This document shows positions 9,537 to 39,293 of a stretch of 39,293 bases of DNA, one piece after another (position 1 is the stretch's first letter; the number at the start of each line of letters is the position of its first letter). Source of the DNA: an uncultured Gammaproteobacteria bacterium (GTDB taxonomy: Bacteria; Patescibacteriota; Microgenomatia; UBA12405); assembly GCA_964463925.1 (NCBI GenBank), contig CAYXDV010000004.1, positions 79,080 to 118,372 on the forward strand, given 5' to 3'. The notes under the pieces are model-generated. The model was not told the origin of the DNA, did not search any database, and was given only the letters and a program-made list of their open reading frames with translations. Both the position numbers and the translations under genes were made by a program.

Positions 9537-11543
9537 ATGCAAAACCCATTTGACAAGAATTCGTCACCAGAAGATATTATTTCCACTCCTAAACTAAGCT
9601 CAATTTTTGACAAATCAACAAACAAGCCAACTATCCCCGTCAAAAAAACATCAAAGCTCAAAACTTTCTTTAAAATCGCATCTTTATCTCTTTTGGTTTT
9701 ACTACTGTTAACGAGCGTGGCTGGTTTTTACCTCTATCAAGAGGCATATAAACCATATCAAGAATTCTCACAAAAATTACAGCAAACCTTGGCACTTCAA
9801 CCAAAGGTAAAAGAAGCTATTGCCAGTAAGGATTTAAACAAGATTAAACTCCAGTTAGAAGAATTAAAACAAGCCAAAGAATCTCTTCAAACTTCTTATC
9901 AAAAGTTTTCCAAATTCAGCAAGCTTCCAAAAATTAAAGACTATTATCAAGACGGAGAAGAAGCCTTTAATATTGCCGACCAATCTTTTGATGCATCCAA
10001 CATAATCTTAACTGCGATTGCTCCTTACCAAGACTTTCTTGGATTAACCGGAGGTCTGGCTAGTAAAAAAACAGAAACTGCAGAAGACAGAATTGCTTTT
10101 TTGACTCAATCAGTCGAAGGTATTGTTCCTTATTTTGATCAACTGGAAACCAAATTATCCAATATTGAAACATCTTTAAATAAAATAGATGCGACTCGTT
10201 ATCCCGAAGAATTTAAAGGCCTAAAAATACAATCTAATTTATTACAAGTAAAACAAGAAGTAGCCCAGATTCATCAGTTTTTACAGGAGGGAAAGCCAAT
10301 TCTAACCAAAACATCATGGTTACTTGGAAAAGACAAGCCTAGAACTTATCTGCTTCTTTTCCAAAACGATGCTGAGCTGAGACCGACAGGTGGTTTCTGG
10401 ACTGCTTATGGTACTCTAAAAGTTGATAAGGGCAAAATCACTCCAATTTCTTCCAGCAATATTTACGATCTAGACACAAAGTTCAACAGCACCATACCAG
10501 CTCCAAGACCTATTAAAAGCTATCACATTAATGTGCCATATTGGTATGTCCGTGATATGAATCTATCACCTGACTTTCCAACTAGTGTGAAAAACTTTAT
10601 AGATGCCTACAATAAAGTCTACAAGAACGACCCCTTTGATGCTGTTGTTGCAATCACCACAAAACCTGTAGTTGATTTAATCAAAGTTATTGGGAGAGTT
10701 GGAGTTCCAGGTTGGGGTAACTTTACTCCAGATCCAGACAAACGCTGTGACGGCTGTCCAAATGTTTTATACCAAATGCTATGGCTAGCTGGTAAACCCA
10801 GAAACTATGTTGATAATGATAGAAAAGGATTCTTGGGCCCTCTAATGCACTCAATCCTGGCTAATGCCATGGGATCGCCTAAAGAAAAAATGGGGCCTCT
10901 AATGTCAGCCATGCTTGAAAATGTGAATCAGAAAAACATTTTGATGTATTTTAAGGATCCAGAAATGCAAAAGGCTGCAGAGCTTGCCAATATCGCTGGC
11001 ACGGTTACTCAAACAACAAACAATACTGATTACATAATGTTGGTTGATGCAAATATGAGTAGTGCTAAGACTAATTTATTCCTAACTCAAAAAATTAGAC
11101 ATGAAATTATTAGTCAGAATGGTCAAGTTCAACACAAAATAACAATAACTTATACTAATCCATCAAAAGCTAGTAATTGCAATTTGGAAAAAGGGGATAT
11201 TTGTCTGAATGCTCCAAAGTATCGTGATTGGTTCAGATTTTATGTACCCACCAACTCCAAATTAGATAAAATGACTGGTTCCGAAGTTGATCCACTAACA
11301 TACGAGGAAAGCGGAAAAACTGTTTTTGAAGGTTTTTATGGCAATAAGTATCCGCTTTACGCCCAAAGTAGCACTAAAACTAGCATACAATATACTAGTA
11401 CAGTTCCAGCCTCCAAAGACTATACTTTGTTGATTCAAAAGCAGCCAGGTGCCAAAGCTGCCGAATATCAATTGGTGGTCAACGGCGAAGACTATGATAC
11501 TTTTATGCTTACGGCCGATAAAACCATCAAACTGGCCTTGTGA
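9537..11543 (+). CDS. DUF4012-family membrane-anchored protein
   Basis: Single TM helix, long coiled region, then YLLLFQNDAELRPTGGF and RDMNLSPDFPTS, which I recognise as DUF4012-like. These proteins often sit at glycan loci. Confidence 0.75.
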   Translation: MQNPFDKNSSPEDIISTPKLSSIFDKSTNKPTIPVKKTSKLKTFFKIASLSLLVLLLLTSVAGFYLYQEAYKPYQEFSQKLQQTLALQPKVKEAIASKDLNKIKLQLEELKQAKESLQTSYQKFSKFSKLPKIKDYYQDGEEAFNIADQSFDASNIILTAIAPYQDFLGLTGGLASKKTETAEDRIAFLTQSVEGIVPYFDQLETKLSNIETSLNKIDATRYPEEFKGLKIQSNLLQVKQEVAQIHQFLQEGKPILTKTSWLLGKDKPRTYLLLFQNDAELRPTGGFWTAYGTLKVDKGKITPISSSNIYDLDTKFNSTIPAPRPIKSYHINVPYWYVRDMNLSPDFPTSVKNFIDAYNKVYKNDPFDAVVAITTKPVVDLIKVIGRVGVPGWGNFTPDPDKRCDGCPNVLYQMLWLAGKPRNYVDNDRKGFLGPLMHSILANAMGSPKEKMGPLMSAMLENVNQKNILMYFKDPEMQKAAELANIAGTVTQTTNNTDYIMLVDANMSSAKTNLFLTQKIRHEIISQNGQVQHKITITYTNPSKASNCNLEKGDICLNAPKYRDWFRFYVPTNSKLDKMTGSEVDPLTYEESGKTVFEGFYGNKYPLYAQSSTKTSIQYTSTVPASKDYTLLIQKQPGAKAAEYQLVVNGEDYDTFMLTADKTIKLAL

Positions 11544-28004: not shown

Positions 28005-28077
28005 GGTTGTTTAGCTCAGTTGGTAGAGCATTCCGTTCACATCGGAAAGGTCGCAGGTCCGAGTCCTGCAACAACCA
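28005..28077 (+). tRNA. tRNA-Val (anticodon CAC)
   Basis: Acceptor GGTTGTT/AACAACC, D arm GCTC/GAGC, anticodon arm TTCCG-TTCACAT-CGGAA, T arm GCAGG-TCCGAGT-CCTGC, discriminator A. CCA is not encoded. Extended -10 TGTTATAAT at 27980-27988. Confidence 0.95.
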
Positions 28078-29704
28078 CTTCCAACATTTTTACTCTTTTC
28101 CACAAAGATGCAAAATCCCCACTTTTGTATAAGTTATCAATCTCTCTACCCCAATTGCTTGCCAATTCAATTTCTTGTTTTTCATACATATCTAATTTGT
28201 GGTGCAACAACCAGGTATATATCTTTTTAACATGTGCTTTTCCAACAACTAAATATGCTTTGGCAGCCGATTGACTAATCGGTAAAACATCTGGAGTTAA
28301 ATGATATAGATCTTCCAAAATTGACCAGGATACTGCTTTCTCTTTCGATTTATTACTAAATTCATAAGTCCATCTTAAAGTTTGCAACCAATTTTTCTTT
28401 TCGGCAGCTTTGTAGGCTTGATCGAGATTGTTATCCCCTAAATATGTTTTATGAAGATTTTTTAACTTTAGTTTAATGATTTCCCATAGTTGATTATTAC
28501 TTTCCTGATCCAAAACTAAACTATTTCCAATAACCCGATAACTCAAATTTATAACTTGCCCCTTTGATATTGTTCCCTCATATTTTTCCCACACATTTGG
28601 CGAATCATGATAGCTTGCAAAGACATGAAAAGCACCATTTCCAGTTCCGACTACCTTAAGTTTACATTTATCATCATTTTTCAAAATAGGGAAACTAACA
28701 AAGCCAAATTTGTCCGATGTCTTTGTCAAATATCCAGTACAGTCAACTTCCAAATACGCGGGTGAACCAATAAAAAATACTGCTCCATTTTCTGTAGGAT
28801 CTTCATTTTGTTTCAAAATAGCAAGTGGTCTCAATTGCAATTCATTCATAATGTTATTGACAGACAAATCTACCATTTTTCGATGTGTAGCTTGAAGTTG
28901 GATAAAACTATCACCACTTATTTTTGCACTTGTAGTTAGAATTGTTCCATCACCGTCAGCATATTCATATCCATCAAAGCTTCCATCTCCCCACTTGTTC
29001 AAAACCTTATCAACCAAATCTTGTTCTGATAGTAAAACCCTTGATTTTGTCTCAGCTCCAGAAGCAACCCTTGCAGACAAAAATGGAAATATATTGCTAA
29101 CTTCTAAATTTCTGCCAATTATGTAATCATTCTTGTAAGTCAAAGATGCAAGCGGAAGCTGTTGGCCATTTTTCTTCACAAAATCAAACGTTGGCGATAT
29201 ATCCTTTAAAACTGGCATAACCGTTCTGACTGTTTCTATGTCGCTACTATACTTAATTCTCCAGGTTTGAAACAGCAAATTTGTCATCAAACTTTGTAAA
29301 CTAAATTTATCGTAGTCAATTACTTTACCACCTGCCCACGCTTCATAAGCACTGACAACTCCAGAATGTGGACTGCCAAGGGTGATTAATTTGAGCAGTC
29401 GTGGATCCATATGGTATTGAACCCAATCTCTAGCAACCAAACCTCCAAGAGAATGGCCAATCAAAACAAATTTATCCTCAGGTCCCGTTTTCTGTACAAT
29501 AAAATTATTCAAATTATTCTGAATCTCTAAAATGTTCTTGCGCCAATCATAATTCCAAACAAATAAGTCAACCCCTTCTCTGTAACCATTATTAACAAAA
29601 GCCTCAACTAAGTTATCATAATCATGAACAAAAGGTGTCATTTCCCAATCTTTAGGCAAAACGTTTAGATTATATATCATAGCCTCGCTATTCCAACTTC
29701 CACC
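28037..29704 (-). pseudogene. Alpha/beta-hydrolase (lipase/PGAP1-like), 3' part, interrupted by the integrated element
   Basis: GHSLGG nucleophile elbow, ITLGSPHSG, DGDGTI, late His. The frame continues upstream of Met 29680 as G-G-S-W-N-S-E-A-M up to the junction. The missing N-terminal part is at 39239-39293. Confidence 0.85.
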
Positions 29705-29726
29705 AAAACCTTGGAACTAGTTACAA
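29689..29726. mobile_element. Left attachment junction of the serine-recombinase element
   Basis: Host half (TA)TTCCAACTTCCA, core CC at 29703-29704, element half AAAACC + TTGGAACTAGTTACAA (29711-29726). Confidence 0.85.
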
Positions 29727-30974
29727 CAAAATTGTGAAGTATACTATTACCCTAAAATCAGGTAATAATAAATTTTTAATCAATAAAAAAACTAGTTGTT
29801 TTAATTTGCAAGACAAACAAAAATTTTCAATTTACAATGAGATTGCAAAAAAAACCTACCAAACATTATGAAGAGATAAACCCGTAAGTTAGATAAAATC
29901 TAATATTAAAACCAAATTCAAAATATATTGCAAAATAAATTAATTTTAGGCAACAATTTATCCTATAACACTTGCCAAACAGCATTTAAGTCTGTTAAAC
30001 TAAAAATAGATAAGGATATTATTCCAAAGATTGAGATTTAGATCGGGCAAAGATATTTACCCAACTACGAGGAGTTTATGAGTAGTATAAAGCCGTGCAA
30101 AACGGCATAGCTGAAAGGATTATCAAATTTAATCTCAATCGACTAGGAATAAGTTAAACTGGGCTGTGCTTTCCATTAAGCCATCAAATAGTGGACTATA
30201 TCTCAAGGAAAGACCCGATGAAATTTAAGGAATATCTGAAGTAGAAGCAATATTCTGTCATCCAAAGAGGCTAAAAAAGCTTAGAGAATGACCCTTAGTG
30301 TTGTAGGAAGGGACTCTCTCCGCCACTGGCGTGATGTAACAACACCGTTAAGAAACCCAATGGGGGCAGGGGGGCCGTATCTAATCTTAGGAAAGTTGTA
30401 ATTGGTTGGATGTTGAGCGAATGAAATGAGCGAGACGGCATAAGAGTAGTTTGAGATTGGTAGAGATTAGCGCCCATTTCCTGGCTAGGAAAGAGGGTTG
30501 GGGTGACAGATCGAATAAATCCCCTCAGGGATTTAATTACTATATCTATTATTTCTTGCTTTCTTTTGTTTCTTTTCTTTACCGCATTTTTACCAGGCTC
30601 TGTCATTTGAGAACTCTGTCGAAGTCAGCTACAGTGAGGATTATTGATATCCGTAGGTCGGACAATGTGACTCCCCATAAAAGTTAATGTCGCCATTAAA
30701 ATTGAAAAAATTTTAAGGGGGTCAAAAAATCTTTCAAAAGATTAAAAATTAATTAAAAAATGGTTAAAAATATTCACAAAATATCAGATTTATTAATAAT
30801 AATTGCCTTGTTTCTCATGATATTCAGACTTTTAAGCTGCTAATTTGTGCAACCTTGAAACTGAATATTTGTTGGAAAGTTAGATTTTAACTGCGCCGTT
30901 AAAATTAGGTGGTGAGTGTATCTTTGCTCGGAAAATAGTTATTGGTAGACGCGTTTCTGAAATTAGAGGGGGTA

Positions 30975-31949
30975 TTAATAGTTTTTGTATTCCTTTTCAA
31001 TTTCAACTCGAATCTCTTCAATCATTTTCTTGTCAGAATCACTGGTAATAAAGTTTGAAGGTATAGTTTCAGAACTGGTATTAATGATGAATTTGGCATA
31101 GCCTTCATCATTTTTGCCTATTTCTTGATAATCCCAAAAATCTTCAATGGCCAAGGAAATTATTTCTTCAAGTGTGGTGTCTTTATCTTTTAGGATTTTT
31201 CTGCGATAAGTATCTCGTTCTGAGATGTTTTTCAGATAATAAGATGAAGATGATAATCCATCTCTCTGATATTTTCCTTCCTTCCAAGTAAGGATGATGG
31301 TATGGCCTGGAGCATTGGCATGACAAAACCATCCTCTTCCACTTTCCCATGAGTCATCTGTCACCATAATGTTATCTGTTCCTCCATTGGTTGATTCGGA
31401 TACCCAGACATTGGCATATTTATACCCTTCCACTTTTGGCAGATCGGGAAACATATCTTTCACTTCGCCGTTAACAATTTGAAAAACTGATTGTCCATGA
31501 CAGTTCCAGCAGTTGCCGTAATTGGCATGTTGGATAATTAATTCAGGGATTCCATCCTTATTGATGTCTTTAATTTTTACACTGTCAAACATTTCATCTT
31601 CCATGGAAAAGATTATTTTCTCCTGATCTTTGTCGTCGACTTTTGTTAAGAGAAAAACTCTTGGCAAATTATCATCATCACTGGGACACTCAAAAGTCAT
31701 CCAGTTATATTTTTCATTTTTCCAAACTAATCGTCCTCCGTCATCTTGTTTGACAGAAATTCGTCGATCATTTTGTTGGCAAAGCTTAATTGTCTCAGCA
31801 GTGCAGTCAAACGCTGATTGTGAAGGCTCTGGTGAAGCCGCAGGAATATTATTATCGGTCTGTTGTCTGTTAAGTTTGAAGAAAATCAGGAATACAGAAA
31901 CAACCAAGATTGAAAGAATTATAAGATTGTTTTTGTTTAGCTTTTTCAT
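30975..31949 (-). CDS. Membrane-anchored extracellular protein with a Dx[DN]xDG Ca-binding-like motif
   Basis: N-terminal TM helix, low-complexity linker, DINKDGIPELII, several Cys including CWNCH. Confidence 0.75.
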   Translation of the reverse strand: MKKLNKNNLIILSILVVSVFLIFFKLNRQQTDNNIPAASPEPSQSAFDCTAETIKLCQQNDRRISVKQDDGGRLVWKNEKYNWMTFECPSDDDNLPRVFLLTKVDDKDQEKIIFSMEDEMFDSVKIKDINKDGIPELIIQHANYGNCWNCHGQSVFQIVNGEVKDMFPDLPKVEGYKYANVWVSESTNGGTDNIMVTDDSWESGRGWFCHANAPGHTIILTWKEGKYQRDGLSSSSYYLKNISERDTYRRKILKDKDTTLEEIISLAIEDFWDYQEIGKNDEGYAKFIINTSSETIPSNFITSDSDKKMIEEIRVEIEKEYKNY

Positions 31950-32251
31950 TGGAATTTTGGACTGCCCAAAATATTTGATGTTGGTCTATTTTTATTATCC
32001 CCCTCAAAATAGTTTTTGCCAAAGTAGATAACAAACATGTAGAGAATGTAAAATCCGATTGATCTGGCAATGTAGGAAGAAGGGTTTGGAATTTTAATGT
32101 CACATGTTTGGGTGCAGGGATCAGAATAGCAAAATTTATCGGACTGGCAAGTTCTGAAACTGACAAGACTAGACACTAAAGAAATAATGATGATAAAAAT
32201 GAAAGCTCCTGATTGCTTGTTCATTTTTTGATGATTCCTATCTTCTCCCAA
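31946..32251 (-). CDS. Small hypothetical membrane protein (2 TM, Cys-rich loop)
   Basis: Two hydrophobic helices flank CQSDKFCYSDPCTQTC. ATGA overlap with the downstream gene. True start may be the second Met. Confidence 0.55.
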   Translation of the reverse strand: MGEDRNHQKMNKQSGAFIFIIIISLVSSLVSFRTCQSDKFCYSDPCTQTCDIKIPNPSSYIARSIGFYILYMFVIYFGKNYFEGDNKNRPTSNILGSPKFQ

Positions 32252-32673
32252 ATGTTTTTGTAACTGACTGGTTTTCCATATTTATTGCCTTCATCAACAC
32301 TTATTGAAAAGGCAAGGTAAAGAAAATAAATGAAACTCATTAATCCGCCAATACCTTTATCGATTGATGACAAGACAAACAAAACAAAAGCGATAATAAT
32401 TGGGACTGCCCAAGACTGATTAAGGTCGTGGTGTCTTCGAATTAAAATTGAAATTGATAAAAATCCTGAGACAACAAACGGAGCAACAATAAAAAACAAA
32501 GAAAGTATCCCTGAAGTGGAAAGCATAAGACCAAAAATAGTATCAATCAACGATACAATCGCCCATAAAACAAAAATCGGTATCCAAATAATAATCGGAG
32601 TGAGAATAATGGCAATAACAAAGTCTTTTCTTGAAAGCCTATCTTTGAAGTTTATTTTCATAGTTTTGACCAT
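32221..32673 (-). CDS. DUF805-family membrane protein
   Basis: FKDRLSRKDF N-terminus, ISILIRRHHDLNQS, C-terminal GNKYG. Confidence 0.75.
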   Translation of the reverse strand: MVKTMKINFKDRLSRKDFVIAIILTPIIIWIPIFVLWAIVSLIDTIFGLMLSTSGILSLFFIVAPFVVSGFLSISILIRRHHDLNQSWAVPIIIAFVLFVLSSIDKGIGGLMSFIYFLYLAFSISVDEGNKYGKPVSYKNIWEKIGIIKK

Positions 32674-32724
32674 CTTGAGTTTGGTTTTAATTTGCCTCTC
32701 ATGTGGTTATTTTTAACTAAATTA

Positions 32725-32743
32725 TACACTATCGTGTAGTGTA
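32725..32743. promoter_or_regulatory. Palindromic operator between divergent DUF805 and XRE genes
   Basis: TACACTA-TCGTG-TAGTGTA, a perfect 7-bp inverted repeat, overlapping a minus-strand TATAAT (32726-32721). Confidence 0.6.
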
Positions 32744-32774
32744 GGAAGCCAAATAAAATCATAAGATTGGGTTA

Positions 32775-32987
32775 ATGTTATCGAAAGAAAGCTTATCTAA
32801 AAAATTTGGGAACAGATTGAGAGAGGAAATGGGATCCATGAGTCAAGAAGCTTTGGCGGTGAAGTCGGGTTTACATGTCAACTATATCGGCAGACTTGAG
32901 CGCGGCGAAGCTTGTCCTTCGATTTATGCCGTCTACAAAATTGCCTTGGCTTTGAAAATTAAACCGAGTGAATTATTGGAATTATAA
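32775..32987 (+). CDS. XRE-family HTH regulator (R-M controller C-protein-like)
   Basis: [28 protein letters not shown]...KIALAL pattern, 70 aa. Confidence 0.88.
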
Positions 32988-32997
32988 TTTTTGTTCC

Positions 32998-34608
32998 TTA
33001 CAGATACGCCAGATTCCAACATTTGTTTAATGCCTCAAAAATCTTTTGCATTTCTTTTTCAAATTCATCTTTAGATATTGATTGTGCAACTTCACGGGCA
33101 TAAATTATTTTTCCATTCTGAATTTTATCCAGCTCTTTGACTTCGTCTGCTGTTTTCTTCCATCCTTTTGGGTAATATTCCTCAATTGAGTCAGTTGGTA
33201 ATTCAAAAAATTGCCCTTGAGAAGTAAGATGACTATAATCGGTCAAAAATTTTTGTTTATCTTTCTCCTTTTCTGGAGATGGCCTATCAATCAGTATTAT
33301 TAATCTATCCTTATATATTGGCGACATCTTTCCTATTGGACAATAAACTTTATTTATCGCATCCATTGATTTGCTTTGTTTTTTAATATCTCCCTCTGCA
33401 AAAATAACCTGAATTTGCGGTTTATCAGAATAAAACCTTTTTATGATATTCACAATAAATTGTTCATCACTTTTACCTTCAACTATCAAAAAATTTCTTG
33501 GCAACAGCAAATCTGAAGGACTTCCTCCTAACAGATCATATATAACCGACATTTTATCTATTCCAGAAACATCATCAATATTTGTTATTCCACCAATCTT
33601 TTCTACTTTGAATATTTTTTGGCAATCATTGTCGTCCGTTACCAAGACTGAAGAATGAGTGTTGACAAAGACCTGATCTGTTTCACAAATATCCAAAAGC
33701 GCTTTTTTAAGTGCTCTTTGGGCTGATGGATGCAGATGCAGTTCTGCTTCGTCAATTAAGAATAAAAATGAACCTCCGCCACTCTGCTCTTTTCGGTAAT
33801 CAGCAAAAGCCTGAATAATCGACAACATTATTGCCCTTTGCATTCCATCGCCTTTTTCTTCAGCTTTTGTTTCTATTCCATCGTTAACTGTAGTGTCAAA
33901 ACTCTTAAGCAAATCGCCGAACTCTGGTGGGTTAACCCCAAACTTAACACTAGTTCCATCTGGAAACTGTTTTTGGAGATAGATTTCTACTTTTGATCCA
34001 AGTTTATTCAGCTCCTTTCTTACCTCAGAATTTTCATCATCAAATAGTTTTGAAAATTTATCTCTGAAATCTGAATATTCTGATGAGTTTTCAATAATTG
34101 TAGTCAAAACTCCTGATAGCATTATCCCAATTGGATTTCTGTCTTTATATTTTGAAACATCGTCCAGTCTTATTTTAGTATTGATATATTCAAGCTTAGG
34201 TAAAAATTCATTAATTGCAGTGTCTAGTCCTGATGGATTTCCTTTATCCACCTCACCAACAAAATATTTTCTCTTGTGATCGTTAGCACTACTCTTGATG
34301 ACTGAAAACGAAGTTGACTCTCCTAGTAAAGTTTTTATTTTTGTTTTATTGGCATCAGTCGTTAATTTCTCGATGTCTGATTCTAAAACCTCATCGAAAA
34401 ACAATTCAACTTCAATTATGTTTGAAGCTATTTTGTTAAAATGCTCATCGGCAGATGATGATTTGGCGTTATAAAACCATTCAATTGCTTCAAAAAAATT
34501 TGTTTTACCATGGTTATTTTGCCCAACAAAAACATTAAATCTGGCGGTTTCTATTGTCTTGTTTTGAATTGATCGATAATTTTGAACCCTTACTTTTGAT
34601 ATTTTCAT
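32998..34608 (-). CDS. OLD-family ATP-dependent endonuclease (ABC ATPase + TOPRIM)
   Basis: MKISKVRVQNYRSI, Walker A GQNNHGKT, ABC signature KGDGMQR, Walker B LIDEAELHLHP, H-loop NTHS, TOPRIM LIVEGKSDE and ILID. Start placed at ATG 34608. Confidence 0.88.
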   Translation of the reverse strand: MKISKVRVQNYRSIQNKTIETARFNVFVGQNNHGKTNFFEAIEWFYNAKSSSADEHFNKIASNIIEVELFFDEVLESDIEKLTTDANKTKIKTLLGESTSFSVIKSSANDHKRKYFVGEVDKGNPSGLDTAINEFLPKLEYINTKIRLDDVSKYKDRNPIGIMLSGVLTTIIENSSEYSDFRDKFSKLFDDENSEVRKELNKLGSKVEIYLQKQFPDGTSVKFGVNPPEFGDLLKSFDTTVNDGIETKAEEKGDGMQRAIMLSIIQAFADYRKEQSGGGSFLFLIDEAELHLHPSAQRALKKALLDICETDQVFVNTHSSVLVTDDNDCQKIFKVEKIGGITNIDDVSGIDKMSVIYDLLGGSPSDLLLPRNFLIVEGKSDEQFIVNIIKRFYSDKPQIQVIFAEGDIKKQSKSMDAINKVYCPIGKMSPIYKDRLIILIDRPSPEKEKDKQKFLTDYSHLTSQGQFFELPTDSIEEYYPKGWKKTADEVKELDKIQNGKIIYAREVAQSISKDEFEKEMQKIFEALNKCWNLAYL

Positions 34609-34672
34609 TGTTAAAAATAAGAAAATATATCTCAATTATATCCGTAAAATCAACTGAAATAAGGCATCAAAA

Positions 34673-35818
34673 TTATTCCGTTTCTTCTGTTTCTTCCGCA
34701 AATGAGTCAAATGATCCAATTCTTGCAAAATCTACACTGTATTTTCCTTCACTGTGCTTGTAAATAACAACACTATCTATGCCTAAGTTTTCAAGCTTTT
34801 CATAAGTTAGCAACTCACCATCTTTAAGGCTCATCACATTTCTCAATATCCATTCACCAAGTCGAGAGTTTGGGTCTGACATTAAAGCTTTTCGGTTATC
34901 CTGACAAAGTTTTGCGCTCATTGTTGATCCGTCAGGCAGTTCCAAATCAAATTTGGTTTCTCTGCCTGGAAAGAAATCGGGGTATGATTTATGAACCCAT
35001 GAGGGAATTTTAAGATAGACTTCGCTCATATTCCTTGGCCTCCCTCCGGCATTCCACTGATTTAATCCGCTTTTTTCAGGAACGAATCTTTCACCTGTTT
35101 TTTTATCAATAGAGAACAGTGGTAAAAAGACATGAGGAGCCTCTCTAATTGGGGCAAAGACTATATCTCTTACGGACTCGTTAAACATTTTGTCTAGCGC
35201 TTCAAAAGGATCCGTTATTATTTTCACAGGAAAGTCCATTAAAAAACCGTCTGCAACAAACTGCTCAAAAAGGGTACTTTTAGATATGTTGAATCCGTAA
35301 TTATTGATGCCATCATCAAATCTGATGGTATTTCTTGCGCATATCACATTTTTGATTTGTTCAATCCTGACCAAATCCATTTTTGTTTCAAACACATGAA
35401 TTTTGCCTTTTGATCTTGTGACACAGTGATAAATCATATCTTCAAGTCCATAGGCACGGCGAGCAAACTCAATTCTCTGATTTCTGAGTTCGGCTACTTT
35501 TATAATCTTTTGATCTGAATCAAGGCCCTTAAAAGCATCAAGTTCCCGATTAAATTCGGCGACCTTCTCAAAACTTTTTCCATTTTTATGAAGAAATGTT
35601 TTTATTCCGACACCGACTTTGTCTTTTGAGGCATCAATGGATGTATCATGGCGGGATAAATTTTCTGCCTTAAATGATTTACAGAACAGATTTTCAACAA
35701 GCCTATACCCTAAATATGGCTCTGGGCTATCAGAAAACAGGTTCGACAAAGACCCAGCGGCTTTGAGCATGCGCTCATAATATTCTTTCTTTTTTTCTTC
35801 CTGTTTATTAATAAACAT
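34673..35818 (-). CDS. Type II restriction endonuclease, NgoFVII-family-like
   Basis: Immediately downstream of a C5 methyltransferase (2-nt gap). SIDASKDKVGVGIKTF is a PD-(D/E)xK-like motif. The family assignment comes from my recollection of the SLSNLFSDS..PYL.YR..EN.FC pattern. Confidence 0.7.
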   Translation of the reverse strand: MFINKQEEKKKEYYERMLKAAGSLSNLFSDSPEPYLGYRLVENLFCKSFKAENLSRHDTSIDASKDKVGVGIKTFLHKNGKSFEKVAEFNRELDAFKGLDSDQKIIKVAELRNQRIEFARRAYGLEDMIYHCVTRSKGKIHVFETKMDLVRIEQIKNVICARNTIRFDDGINNYGFNISKSTLFEQFVADGFLMDFPVKIITDPFEALDKMFNESVRDIVFAPIREAPHVFLPLFSIDKKTGERFVPEKSGLNQWNAGGRPRNMSEVYLKIPSWVHKSYPDFFPGRETKFDLELPDGSTMSAKLCQDNRKALMSDPNSRLGEWILRNVMSLKDGELLTYEKLENLGIDSVVIYKHSEGKYSVDFARIGSFDSFAEETEETE

Positions 35819-35820
35819 AG

Positions 35821-36801
35821 TTAATCCATCGCCTTTTTAATATTTTCGGCAATTCTCTTGATTACCGGAACAACTACCGAGTTTCCCATTTGAGTATAAA
35901 GCTTTGATAAAGCTATGCCACTTGGCAGTTTAATGTCATCAAACCCCATAATTCTGGCACATTCAAGAGGTGTGAGTTTTCTTATTCCATGATTATCTTT
36001 TATAATCGGCACATTATGCCCCCCTTGACCCATATTTGCCGTTAAAGTAGGACAAACGCCTTTTTTATTCTCGCGCAAATAAACTCTTCTCCATTGATAT
36101 ACAGATCCTTTTTCAATATCCTGGCTTTTCAGCTTTTCAAAAAGCGGTTTGTTGTTGTAATAAAATTTTTCATCAACTTTGTTTTCAAGAAGGTCAGTGA
36201 CATTTTTTGTCAAATTTATCGGCTTTGGAAATTCAAACCTATCTGCAATTTTTTTGTCCTTAAAACCCACAATATAAATTCTCTCCCTATTTTGGGGAAT
36301 ATTGCCATATTCCATGCTGTTAAGGACTTTGTACTTGATATGATAGCCAAGGTTTTCAAGAGTCTTTTTGATTACATTAAAGGTTTTGCCGTCATCATGA
36401 TTTTCCAGATTTTTTACATTTTCAAGCAAAAATCCTTTTGGACTAGTTTCTCTTAATATTCTTTCTATCTCAAAAAAAAGGTTTCCTCTTCCTTTGGGAT
36501 CATTGAATCCATGTCTGTACCCTGCAATCGAAAAAGCCTGGCAGGGAAATCCTGAAAGTAAAAAATCATATTCGGGAATTTCACTGGATTTTACTTCCCT
36601 GATATCTTTGACTGTAAGCTTCACACCTTTAGAATTCAGATCGTATGTATACTTGCATGCAGGCTCAAAATCGTTGGCAAAAACAGCCTCAAAAGCTCCA
36701 GTTGATTCAAATCCTTTTCTTATTCCGCCAATTCCGGCGAAAAGATCAATTGTTCTTATTTTCTTTTTTTGCATATTTCTCTTTGTAGGCTTGAAACGCA
36801 T
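35821..36801 (-). CDS. dcm: DNA (cytosine-5)-methyltransferase
   Basis: Motif I DLFAGIGG, IV GFPCQ, VI ENVKNL, VIII PQNRERIYIVG, IX RKLTPLEC, X GNSV. True start may be ATG 36774. Confidence 0.95.
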   Translation of the reverse strand: MRFKPTKRNMQKKKIRTIDLFAGIGGIRKGFESTGAFEAVFANDFEPACKYTYDLNSKGVKLTVKDIREVKSSEIPEYDFLLSGFPCQAFSIAGYRHGFNDPKGRGNLFFEIERILRETSPKGFLLENVKNLENHDDGKTFNVIKKTLENLGYHIKYKVLNSMEYGNIPQNRERIYIVGFKDKKIADRFEFPKPINLTKNVTDLLENKVDEKFYYNNKPLFEKLKSQDIEKGSVYQWRRVYLRENKKGVCPTLTANMGQGGHNVPIIKDNHGIRKLTPLECARIMGFDDIKLPSGIALSKLYTQMGNSVVVPVIKRIAENIKKAMD

Positions 36802-37169
36802 GTCTCAAGATTGTTTCTGATGTCATGTTCCCAGAAACGAAGAACCTTAATATTATTATTACACAGCTTTTGGTTTATTTCGGCATCTCTTTTAACATTT
36901 CCCTTTATCTTTTTATTCCAATAATCATTTCCGGATTTTGGCTTTTTGAAACATTTTGGGCATTTATGCCAAAAACATCCATCAATAAATACAGCTATTC
37001 TGGCTTTAGGGAAGAAAACATCAGGTTTTCCAATAATTTTAGAAGTTAAACGGTATCCTCTTATGCAATTTTTCCAAATAGCTTTTCTAAAAGCGATTTC
37101 CGGCTTGGTATTTTTGGATTTTATCTGGGACATGCAATGGCTTCTCTGGCCCTTAGTCATATTGTCCAT
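36756..37169 (-). CDS. vsr: Very-short-patch repair endonuclease
   Basis: RSHCMSQIKSKNTKPE, GKPD, AVFIDGCFWH.C..C, YWNKKI..NVKRD, LRFWEH. Confidence 0.93.
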   Translation of the reverse strand: MDNMTKGQRSHCMSQIKSKNTKPEIAFRKAIWKNCIRGYRLTSKIIGKPDVFFPKARIAVFIDGCFWHKCPKCFKKPKSGNDYWNKKIKGNVKRDAEINQKLCNNNIKVLRFWEHDIRNNLETCVSSLQREICKKRK

Positions 37170-37175
37170 AATTAA

Positions 37176-37388
37176 TTATGGCTCATTTTTTTTGTTTTGG
37201 AAGGTATCATTTCGTGTTTTATTCGGTTGCAATAAATTATTTTTGCTTTCGCTCGGTCTGGTTATTAAATCAAAAAGCTTCAAAAAACTCTCTGCCTCGA
37301 TTCTAGCTTTTTCAAAACTAATTTCTCCACATTTTTCCCTGTAGATTTCTTGAAACTCTTTAACTGCTTCATCTGGTAGAAATGACAT
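37176..37388 (-). CDS. Small helical hypothetical protein
   Basis: 70 aa amphipathic (DEAVKEFQEIYREKCGEISFEKARIEAESFLKLFDLI). TATAAT lies 5 nt upstream of the ATG. Confidence 0.6.
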   Translation of the reverse strand: MSFLPDEAVKEFQEIYREKCGEISFEKARIEAESFLKLFDLITRPSESKNNLLQPNKTRNDTFQNKKNEP

Positions 37389-37404
37389 ACCTTATTATAA
37401 GGTA
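37388..37404. promoter_or_regulatory. Palindrome/divergent promoter between two small ORFs
   Basis: TACCTTAT-T-ATAAGGTA fills most of the 25-nt gap between the divergent start codons. Confidence 0.55.
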
Positions 37405-37413
37405 GGATTAATT

Positions 37414-37581
37414 ATGGATGTTAAGAAAGCTCGAGAAATACTTGGAAAGGAAAGCAATAAATACGATGACGGCCAAATTCTTGAATTCATCAATACGGCA
37501 AAACTACTCTCAAATATTGCAATTGAAGAAATTCAAAAGATTATAAAGGAGGAATCAAAATGGCTTCTGAAGAAAAAATAA
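37414..37581 (+). CDS. Small helical hypothetical protein (55 aa, not in the ORF track)
   Basis: MDVKKAREILGKESNKYDDGQILEFINTAKLLSNIAIEEIQKIIKEESKWLLKKK. TAGGAT lies 5 nt upstream. Located just upstream of the recombinase. Confidence 0.65.
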   Translation: MDVKKAREILGKESNKYDDGQILEFINTAKLLSNIAIEEIQKIIKEESKWLLKKK

Positions 37582-37664
37582 CAGTTTTGAACTAGCTTGG
37601 AATAAATAACTCATTTATTAAAACATTATAACTCAAGGATAGTAACCAAGCGTTATAATAATCT

Positions 37665-39257
37665 ATGGCTACAACAAAACAAGCAGCTGCTTATCTCCGC
37701 GTTAGTACAGACGGACAAGATACTCGGTCACAAAGAAGCAAAATTGAAGAATATGCACAAGCCAATAACTACATTGTAGAAAAATGGTTTGTTGACGAGG
37801 CACTTTCTGGAACACTAGACGATAGGCCAGCTTTACTAGAACTTAAGGAATGGGTCCCAAATAATACAGGCAAGTCAATCCTTATGGTCGGTATCGATAG
37901 ATTGGCTCGAGACTTTACTATTTATGCCGATTTTTCAAAATTATTTCTCGATCATCAAGTTGATGCCGTATATCTTAATTGTCCAAAAATAGGGGAGCCG
38001 AGCATTGATACTTTACTTCAAAACATCCTTGCAGCCTTCGCCGCATATGAAAAAGATGTTATAAGAGACCGACTAAACCGGGGAAAACTATTCAAAATTA
38101 AAAACGGAATAATATCTGCAGGAGGTCCATCATTATTTGGCTACAAATTCCGAACTATTATCCATTCCACAGGTAAAAAAGACAAATTTTACGAAATAAA
38201 TGAACCAGAAGCAGAAATAGTCAGAATAATTTTTAACATGTTATTGTCAGGCAGATACAAAACACAAACCATCGGAAGAGAGTTGACGCGCATTAAAACA
38301 CTAAATAGGTCAGGAACCTGTAGGTGGCCATCAACTAGTATAAGGAGCCTGTTAACTAATACCACTTATATGGGGGAATATCGATATGGAAAGACAAAAA
38401 TGTCAGGAACAGGAAAAAACAGAAAAGAAATACCAAGAGCAATAGAAGAACAAATTAAGGTTAAGGTTCCGGCTATTATCAACCCCAAAGATTTTGAAAA
38501 AGCACAAGTCATTCTTGCTAAACTAGCCAGAGGTGATGGTGGTAGAACTAGTAAAAAACACTCCTATCTGCTTTCTGGATTGATAAAATGTGGCAAATGT
38601 ACTCATTGTTATTCGGGTTACAAAAGAGATTCAAAGAAAATAAAAGATAAATGGTTTTATTATCGATGCAACTCAATAAATAAGTACAACGCCGAAGGAA
38701 AACATGTATCTTGTGGCAATCATTCAATTGGTGGAAATATGGCTGAATCAGCAATTTGGAATGTACTAGTTGAGATATTAACCGACCCTAAAAAAATCCA
38801 TGAAAAACCAGAAAAAAAGAAGAATGAAGAGAGACGCATGGAATTAGCTGGAGAATATGTGGCTGTCAACAAACAGTTAAATGGTTTTGATGAGGAAGAA
38901 AACAGGATAATGAAAGCCTTTGGTAAAGGCCTTTTTACAGAGGAACAAGTGATTAGATATAAAAAGGAACTAAATGATGAAATGATTCTGCTTAACCAGA
39001 AAAGAAAAGAACTAATAGATCAGATGTACATTTACTCAATGGAATTTGCACAGTTAGAACTTGATCCTGTTCCAACAAAAGAAGAACTGCAAAACTATTC
39101 ATACGAAAACAAAGGTTATATGATTCAAAAATACATTTCAGAAATACGAGTCCTTCCCACCAATCCTCAGCAATTAGAGATCACTTTTAACCTGCCAGTT
39201 AAACCAAAGACTGTTATTGTAACAAGTTCCAACTCGCCCCTAAACCAGGAAGAATAA
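37665..39257 (+). CDS. Large serine recombinase (integrase)
   Basis: YLRVS (catalytic Ser14), DRLAR, recombinase domain, zinc ribbon LLSGLIKCGKC...YYRC...SC, coiled coil. The ORF runs across the right junction. Confidence 0.95.
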   Translation: MATTKQAAAYLRVSTDGQDTRSQRSKIEEYAQANNYIVEKWFVDEALSGTLDDRPALLELKEWVPNNTGKSILMVGIDRLARDFTIYADFSKLFLDHQVDAVYLNCPKIGEPSIDTLLQNILAAFAAYEKDVIRDRLNRGKLFKIKNGIISAGGPSLFGYKFRTIIHSTGKKDKFYEINEPEAEIVRIIFNMLLSGRYKTQTIGRELTRIKTLNRSGTCRWPSTSIRSLLTNTTYMGEYRYGKTKMSGTGKNRKEIPRAIEEQIKVKVPAIINPKDFEKAQVILAKLARGDGGRTSKKHSYLLSGLIKCGKCTHCYSGYKRDSKKIKDKWFYYRCNSINKYNAEGKHVSCGNHSIGGNMAESAIWNVLVEILTDPKKIHEKPEKKKNEERRMELAGEYVAVNKQLNGFDEEENRIMKAFGKGLFTEEQVIRYKKELNDEMILLNQKRKELIDQMYIYSMEFAQLELDPVPTKEELQNYSYENKGYMIQKYISEIRVLPTNPQQLEITFNLPVKPKTVIVTSSNSPLNQEE

Positions 39258-39260
39258 CTA
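39217..39260. mobile_element. Right attachment junction
   Basis: Element arm TTGTAACAAGTTCCAA (39217-39232) + CTCGCC, core CC at 39239-39240, then host TAAACCAGGAAGAATAAC. Confidence 0.85.
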
Positions 39261-39293
39261 TTTTGGGTTTAATCGGTACTGCGGTAGGAGATG
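39239..39293 (-). pseudogene. 5' part of the interrupted alpha/beta-hydrolase (continues beyond the window)
   Basis: Minus strand reads SPTAVPIKPKIVILPGLG, a Pro/Thr linker followed by the PG.G oxyanion-region motif that the 28037-29704 fragment lacks. Confidence 0.85.

Follow-up and report, generated by a model that had tools for sequence, protein, structure and literature searches.

What becomes of an integrase when the site at which it acts lies within its own gene? This question is raised by a 39,293 nt stretch of DNA (hereafter the window; positions 79,080 to 118,372 of contig CAYXDV010000004.1, GenBank assembly GCA_964463925.1), labelled as an uncultured Gammaproteobacteria bacterium and assigned by GTDB to the Patescibacteriota. 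The window carries an integrative island of 9.5 kb (29705-39240) that is inserted in an LCAT-like hydrolase gene and encodes a large serine recombinase (LSR), whose open reading frame (ORF) runs out of the island. An earlier interpretation of the window (the sequence-only reading) held that the recombination site is inside this ORF, that integration exchanges the C-terminus of the enzyme, and that the resulting two isoforms could set directionality or stability. Integration indeed swaps the LSR C-terminus for five host-encoded residues, and such swaps recur throughout the clade. In contrast, the proposed effect on directionality or stability is neither shown nor favoured, as the longer tail that is in frame only on the excised circle is largely unconserved. 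This tail is probably for the most part tolerated, weakly constrained read-through and not a conserved regulatory module.

An attachment site within the integrase gene

The att sites were identified by visual inspection and with a script; a general repeat search missed the short att repeat. The rebuilt attP comprises 48 bp, ATTGTAACAA-N28-TAGTTACAAC, and forms an imperfect inverted repeat centred on CC (Table 1). Specifically, the arms TTGTAACAAGTTCCAA (39217-32) and TTGGAACTAGTTACAA (29711-26) are complementary at 15 of 16 positions and flank a 14 nt spacer, the midpoint of which falls between the two bases of this CC. The left half of attP constitutes the last eight codons of the integrase, and integrase codons 517-525 coincide with ATTGTAACAAGTTCC... 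of that half. The right half-site is near-identical in the closest relative (L001), and the same architecture is present in L003 and L094.

The sequence-only reading had placed the crossover either at CC or in a shared TTCCAACT motif. Contigs from three independent public runs, X1 (a DNA metagenome) and X2 and X4 (wastewater metatranscriptomes), contain the host site without the island, with 29704 joined directly to 39241. At the left junction these contigs match the window to 29710 with one mismatch and then continue as AGGAAGAATAACTATTTTGGG. At the right junction, where three mismatches occur, the match begins at 39227 and follows ...ATCATAGCCTCGCTA. The mismatch counts, which are known without a list of the mismatch positions, fit an attB of ...GCTATTCCAACTTCCA-CC-TAAACCAGGAAGAATAAC.... 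On each side of CC, attL and attR have different bases, and at both positions the empty site carries the host base; therefore, strand exchange is confined to the CC at 39239-40. A crossover in the shared TTCCAACT was rejected, because the host TCCA and T, which flank CC on its left and right, respectively, are both retained in the empty site. The reading frame is the same for either candidate, as had been stated, since both are offset by 9536 nt.

Translation confirmed both C-termini that had been proposed. The LSR frame crosses the core at CC and, in the integrated form, ends ...KPKTVIVTSSNSP-LNQEE* (...VTSSNSP-LNQEE*) after 530 aa. On the excised circle the frame continues as QNLGTSYNKIVKYTITLKSGNNKFLINKKTSCFNLQDKQKFSIYNEIAKKTYQTL*, adding 55 codons to the preceding 525 to give a protein of 580 aa. 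A script that joined both element ends found one open frame across the junction and no rival long ORF on either strand. A separate gene across the junction was considered and rejected, as the only candidate was a 37-codon stop-to-stop stretch on the minus strand without function signals.

The 530 aa protein has the features by which LSRs are recognized: a resolvase domain with the nucleophile-serine motif, recombinase and zinc ribbon domains with a coiled coil, an attP of approximately 48 bp, and precise insertion with an empty attB. Pfam assigns Resolvase to residues 7-148 (PF00239, E = 2.9e-25), Recombinase to 182-285 (PF07508) and Zn_ribbon_recom to 302-368 (PF13408), and R12 and S14 of the catalytic motif YLRVSTDGQ are invariant in 71/71 aligned sequences. 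An AlphaFold2 (AF2) model built with this 71-sequence alignment reached a mean predicted local distance difference test score (pLDDT) of 83, compared with 34 for a single-sequence model, and placed coiled-coil helices at 381-458 (381-420 and 426-458). Residue 512 is the end of the last strand modelled with confidence. Because 61 more distant family members end a median of 12 residues past the last conserved block, the 530 aa form is predicted to be a complete enzyme that retains all conserved LSR domains.

It could be argued that the island is a fossil that no longer excises, such that the circle never forms and the tail reading is a construct on paper. This explanation would account for two negative results. 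Public sequencing runs included none with the element, the 3′ half of the LSR gene, the tail, the circular junction or RNA crossing that junction, and no recombination directionality factor (RDF) was identified; the small ORFs near the LSR gene have no family match. However, the LSR ORF is intact, and comparison with L001 (nonsynonymous and synonymous differences, pN 0.05 and pS 0.63) indicates strong purifying selection. Both att halves are intact as well, near-identical strains carry a precise empty site, and relatives exist as unintegrated attP forms. We therefore consider a fossil element very improbable.

Constraint on the circle-only tail

In the account that we favour, the LSR recombines at the central CC of attP, and the left half-site is both coding sequence and predicted binding site. 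The invariant residues (I/V)-V-T correspond to the outer motif GTAACA, placing a dual constraint on one stretch. The residues encoded by attP follow the last confident strand and belong to a predicted disordered C-terminal linker; the overlap of attP and gene is presumably tolerated because these residues form such an unstructured linker. In free copies, translation would proceed across the right half-site as far as the first stop in frame and thereby gain the 55 additional residues. Any constraint on the tail would be limited to its first ~12-22 codons and would derive largely from the DNA site. Excision, if it occurs, would probably require a separate factor, perhaps encoded by a small upstream ORF.

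Comparison of the window with L001, wherein 47 tail codons align without gaps, is consistent with this account. Tail differences are distributed 9/11/12 over the three codon positions, whereas the LSR gene has 46/25/201, with 74% at third positions. Likewise, pN is 0.18 in the tail versus 0.05 in the LSR gene, and the pN/pS ratio in the tail frame is no better than in frame +2. The alignment requires a 1 nt indel near codon 47. The distal tail is replaced in a related contig of run X7, which matches 29679-29738 and 29958-30100 with 229 unrelated nt between these segments, and contigs of X6, X8 and X9 begin to match at 29958 or later (29996 for X9). No other stretch of the region is therefore as variable as the distal tail.

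The two checks on the tail that the sequence-only reading had suggested, coding conservation and structure prediction, both went against a conserved module. The tails of four lineages have 55, 77, 39 and 31 residues and share only (S/C)Y(N/K), because the right arm xGTTACAAx forces those residues, and the closest pair lacks a coding-type substitution pattern over the 47 codons. In the AF2 model made with 71 sequences, the attP-encoded residues 513-533 have pLDDT values below 50 and the tail has block means of ~35-57, although a strand is predicted at 532-541, after the final hairpin. The tail ends ...KKTYQTL, which is not ssrA-like, and its DNA contains a promoter-like AAGACA-N17-TACAAT.

These findings must be weighed against a functional isoform switch, wherein the tail encoded only on the circle would be a C-terminal module that evolves rapidly and acts either as a degron or by reaching the zinc-ribbon/coiled-coil hinge, the place of RDF action. 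The free enzyme would then be integration-only or short-lived, and the integrated 530 aa enzyme would differ from it in directionality or stability. A number of observations count in favour of this possibility and against simple read-through. Only two close sequences cover the tail, giving the codon comparison low power. As had been claimed, the 55-codon open run is longer than expected by chance (P = 0.008 in 5000 dinucleotide shuffles, P = 0.016 with the attP arm fixed), and frames +1 and +2 over the same span contain 3 and 8 stops. Open runs longer than chance are a feature of every free or rebuilt form, with P values of 0.001-0.004 for the 77-codon run of L001, which does not count as independent because L001 is related to the window, 0.09-0.17 for the 39-codon run of L003 and 0.08-0.12 for the 31-codon run of L094; Fisher combination over three lineages gives P ~0.01. 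Within codons 1-22, the window and L001 differ by nine changes, six of them synonymous (nominal P 0.004), in a stretch that was picked post hoc and has nine of its codons in the attP arm. The codon-usage score of the tail frame (0.22) lies close to the gene mean (0.25), but frames +1 and +2 score high as well (0.13 and 0.15); as the A-rich composition lifts all three, this score does not discriminate. An alternating, strand-like pattern opens all four tails (KIVKYTITL, FKYIVRVNV and EFTIKKIVK), and the strand modelled at 532-541 points in the same direction. That public runs yielded neither a circular junction nor RNA across it weighs against the read-through account as well.

There is also precedent for control through the C-terminus. 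Two reports describe C-terminal RDF fusions that reprogram the direction of serine integrases, indicating that a C-terminus can reach the control site (PMC5737554, PMC12286644), and the swapped integrase C-terminus of phage Mx8 alters activity (PMC6070905). Nevertheless, the unconserved tails of 31 to 77 residues, the lack of third-position excess over 47 codons, the replacement of the distal tail in a relative and the low model confidence all argue against an isoform switch, as does the presence of small ORFs that are candidate RDFs. Moreover, the extra peptide would be carried by the form that must integrate, a reaction that LSRs carry out unaided. On balance, we regard an isoform switch as unlikely, although the long open runs and the synonymous bias of codons 1-22 still speak for it.

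The location of the extension on the free enzyme has a further consequence. The sequence-only reading had suggested that the tail might replace or supplement an RDF, but the extension belongs to the integrating form and not to the excising one. Since the free enzyme integrates unaided, the tail is not a simple built-in RDF. If functional, it would, as a tentative deduction, have to be an excision inhibitor or a degron. One rather doubtful version of this idea is that the tail is a rapidly evolving intramolecular control peptide, by which the 580 aa protein would be limited to attP x attB recombination or marked for turnover, whereas the 530 aa protein would sustain low-level excision without an RDF. 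If this were true, directionality would be written into the gene topology of this clade, and perhaps of other LSRs with an ORF that crosses the att core.

Read-through might instead serve expression, with translation or transcription across attP coupling the integrase to the left end of the island, be it the next gene or a noncoding region of ~1 kb. The frame would stay open under such a scheme while the tail sequence varied freely. In L003 only 10 nt separate the stop of the read-through ORF from the start of the next gene on the same strand, and in the window and L001 a conserved gene-free region begins ~90 nt past the tail stop. However, no plus-strand gene follows the tail stop in the window, the promoter-like site in the tail could serve the downstream region alone, and no transcripts of the element were found in public runs. 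Expression coupling is thus improbable, and tolerated read-through continues to be our preferred explanation for the tail.

Related integrases and known systems

A search of 5.8 billion protein clusters yielded only 10 relatives with at least 37% identity (37-89%), and the att core is inside the LSR ORF in all 10. None of these homologous LSRs stops before att, in keeping with the layout advanced by the sequence-only reading, and the alignments indicate that an att core inside the integrase ORF is a trait of this LSR clade. The proteins are conserved as far as ...(I/V)VT-x-(D/N)NSP, beyond which they diverge abruptly, because the att core lies there and the DNA beyond it differs, whether host or element. 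The family site consists of 10 + 28 + 10 bp with a central dinucleotide and follows the pattern ATTGTAACAA-N28-TTGTTACAAT, and the codons of invariant V519 and T520 coincide with GTAACA in all relatives.

An intact attP resides inside the ORF in L003/L004 (P0007, 557 aa; ATTGTAACAATTAATAACTCGCC-CC-AAGTAGTAGAACCTTGTTACAAT) and in L094 (P0010, 556 aa; ATTGTAACAAGAGACAAGGACTC-GG-GAGACCATGTTCGTTGTTACAAG). The other relatives end in host DNA; in integrated copies, the final 4-16 residues and the stop codon are supplied by the host. In L001, L095, L007 and L092 the left arm is followed by host CC(N)AAxCCAGG..., which is the same hydrolase motif, and in L096 the LSR ends in other host DNA. The distant relatives P0028 and P0024 (~27% identity) end in the 5′ end of host ychF. 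Genome and metagenome scans returned 3 and 2 loci, respectively, and a scan of viral contigs returned only distant LSRs with at most 38% identity over short segments.

Several relatives depart from this layout. In L100 (56% identity; 1925-1975) the att core has the opposite orientation with respect to the LSR gene, and the ORF enters the hydrolase motif in sense rather than antisense; the clade therefore inserts in either orientation relative to its own gene. In the integrated relative L005 (11530-11640, the same as L006) a full attP-like site with palindromic centre GC occupies the 3′ end of the LSR gene, and 13 bp beyond it lies another left arm, joined to the host arm. The LSR reads through both sites into a 36-residue tail, and the double site looks like a tandem or a remnant.

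Among the LSRs that end in ychF, the protein terminates within the P-loop-coding 5′ end of this gene (L097/L098, 4616-4650; L099, 4589-4647), and the element end appears to provide a new ychF start. An HTH_17 (Xis-like) ORF precedes the LSR gene in L098 and L099. A small resolvase-like ORF of 131-152 aa, absent from the window, adjoins or overlaps the LSR start in L094 (570-986), L096 (1806-2228), L097/L098 (2254-2712) and L009 (10082-10383). In L009, whose LSR is ~83% identical to that of the window, the left part of the element is different and larger, and attL lies beyond the 10 kb examined. The contigs L007, L008 and L009 share the LSR clade and host-gene context and are labelled Spirochaetia, Pseudomonadales and Candidatus Shapirobacteria, respectively; the DNA resembles that of Patescibacteria, and the first two labels are apparently mistakes of binning or taxonomy.

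The arrangement has its nearest parallel in phage Mx8, wherein attP is located in the integrase coding sequence, integration converts intP to intX, and the integrated form is active with altered properties (Tojo et al., 1996, and Magrini et al., 1999, as summarised in PMC6070905). In both systems integration gives the integrase gene a new 3′ end and its product a new C-terminus. However, Mx8 uses a tyrosine recombinase that targets tRNA-Asp regions, whereas the island encodes an LSR with a 2 bp core, of which only the last 5 (integrated) or 55 (free) residues would differ. Given its predicted serine chemistry, we class the island LSR as an analogue of the Mx8 type and not as a member.

The sequence-only reading had compared the locus with mycobacteriophage BPs. 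In BPs and Brujita (PMC4557955), and in corynephage CyranoPS (bioRxiv 10.64898/2026.10.29.762952), attP is in the 3′ end of the repressor gene and integration removes a degradation tag, with proven effect. The comparison holds in that free and integrated genomes encode different C-termini, a swap that acts as a state sensor in these phages. It fails for the repressor gene and the degradation tag, as the gene crossed here encodes a recombinase and the swapped piece is unconserved and without an ssrA-like end.

In the literature searched, serine integrases have an intergenic attP beside int (PMC4068962). The island LSR resembles the canonical enzymes (A118/LI, phiC31, Bxb1, TP901-1, SPbeta SprA and SV1) in its domains, its ~48 bp attP, the central dinucleotide and an attB in a host gene, but it differs in that the left half-site is int coding sequence. 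The int gene of the archaeal virus SSV1 is split into two large parts on integration. In pleolipoviruses a coding sequence spans attP (PMC7911831). As in these cases, the gene of the island is complete only on the circle and has attP within it. In contrast to them, where tyrosine recombinases or coding sequences of unknown function are involved, all conserved domains remain intact on integration. A different link between the circle and the recombinase gene is described for Tn4451/Tn4453, wherein a promoter for tnpX arises upstream of this gene at the circular joint (Lyras and Rood, 2000, as cited in PMC13023037). These elements are likewise mobilised by an LSR, and the joint alters expression of the recombinase gene itself, but in the island it changes the 3′ coding end and not an upstream promoter.

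A literature search found no serine integrase with attP inside int, although such an absence is not proof. The principle is known from Mx8, BPs-like repressors and the pleolipovirus coding sequence; what appears to be new is an LSR with attP in its own gene. Serine integrases are prized for genome engineering because direction is set only by the site pair and the RDF, and this clade presents a natural experiment in which an influence of C-terminal extensions on the direction or stability of LSRs could be sought. The clade also exemplifies dual constraint, in that the residues I/V-V-T correspond to the motif GTAACA. An ORF that reads out of an element and loses homology at the core could be used as a marker for finding attP and attB computationally. 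Furthermore, the recorded ‘C-terminus’ of such integrated integrases is host sequence, which is a warning for annotation. If the tail is inert, the overlap would represent compact-genome economy in a small defence island.

The island, its host gene and neighbouring features

The insertion interrupts an LCAT/PGAP1-like hydrolase gene: joining 39293-39241 to 29704-28037 restores a single open host frame, ...KPKIVILPGLGGSWNSEAMIYN.... The island sits in the PGLGxSW-coding motif of this gene, in a probable Patescibacteria host. A minus-strand ORF of 241-257 aa occupies the same position in L001, L005 and L092. The cargo is a Vsr-Dcm-restriction endonuclease (REase) system together with an OLD-family ATPase, mobilised by the LSR (Table 1). 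A DUF805 protein is also encoded, and the left end of the island has ~1.3 kb without genes. The same cargo is found in an orthologous host gene in L001 and L002, whose LSR is 89% identical to that of the window.

Table 1. Coordinates of the integrase gene, attachment sites, host gene and cargo in the window.
Feature	Position	Strand	Basis or remark
Host gene C-terminal part, LCAT/PGAP1-like alpha/beta hydrolase	28037-29704	-	Pfam LCAT, PGAP1, Abhydrolase_1; ends at crossover
Crossover dinucleotide CC, attL	29703-29704		empty-site contigs join 29704|39241
Circle-only integrase tail, 55 codons + TGA (29869-29871)	29704-29871	+	in LSR frame only after excision
P′ half-site of attP, inner 13 nt + outer motif TAGTTACAAC	29705-29727		inverted repeat with 39216-39240
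OLD-family ATPase (cargo)	32998-34635	-	Pfam, PADLOC
NgoFVII-like type II REase (cargo)	34673-35818	-	Pfam, PADLOC
C5 DNA methylase (Dcm, cargo)	35821-36801	-	Pfam, PADLOC
Vsr (cargo)	36756-37169	-	Pfam, PADLOC
Two divergent small ORFs, 70 aa (-) and 55 aa (+), upstream of LSR	37176-37581	both	ORF list
LSR ORF, integrated form, 530 aa	37665-39257	+	ORF call, Pfam
P half-site of attP, within LSR ORF (ATTGTAACAA + GTTCCAACTCGCC + CC)	39216-39240		encodes ...IVTSSNSP
Crossover dinucleotide CC, attR	39239-39240		inverted-repeat centre; empty-site contigs
Host-encoded LSR end (rest of LNQEE + TAA)	39241-39257	+	antisense to host codons V-I-L-P-G-L
Host gene N-terminal part, start only	39241-39293	-	joined frame; continues beyond window

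The uninterrupted hydrolase gene is present in wastewater metatranscriptome contigs of runs X2-X4 (window 29300-29710 plus 39227-39293). The target gene seems to be expressed in strains without the island, though carry-over of DNA is possible.

At the left end of the island, a gene-free region of ~1 kb (29958-30975) is conserved in L001 (about 830-1857), where no gene is called either. In run X6, stretches of 29958-30588 have 95-99% identity; matches of X7-X9 contigs start at 29958 or 29996, and immediately ahead of 29958 the DNA is different. A 127 nt portion of this region is shared with L094 at 84% identity. Hairpins within it carry compensatory-looking changes, and an Rfam search of 29500-31100 returned nothing significant. 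The region may be a noncoding RNA or an origin.

The two small ORFs between vsr and the LSR gene have no family match in Pfam or PADLOC, including none to an RDF family. Their region is 78.5% identical at the nucleotide level to L096 306-587, whereas the two LSRs are only ~37% identical. The pair is a candidate mobile regulatory cassette, with its products as putative regulators or a source of RDF.

Finally, the LSR promoter looks leaderless, with a −10 element that ends ~5 nt before the ATG (window 37630-37667; L001 ~9800-9843; L003 ~2300-2348; L094 520-565; L096 1755-1800). In relatives this element is TGTTACAAT, identical to the outer motif of the attP arm, and L094 and L096 carry TTGTAACAA-N16/17-TGTTACAAT at the LSR promoter. 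The shared motif hints that the LSR may bind its own promoter.

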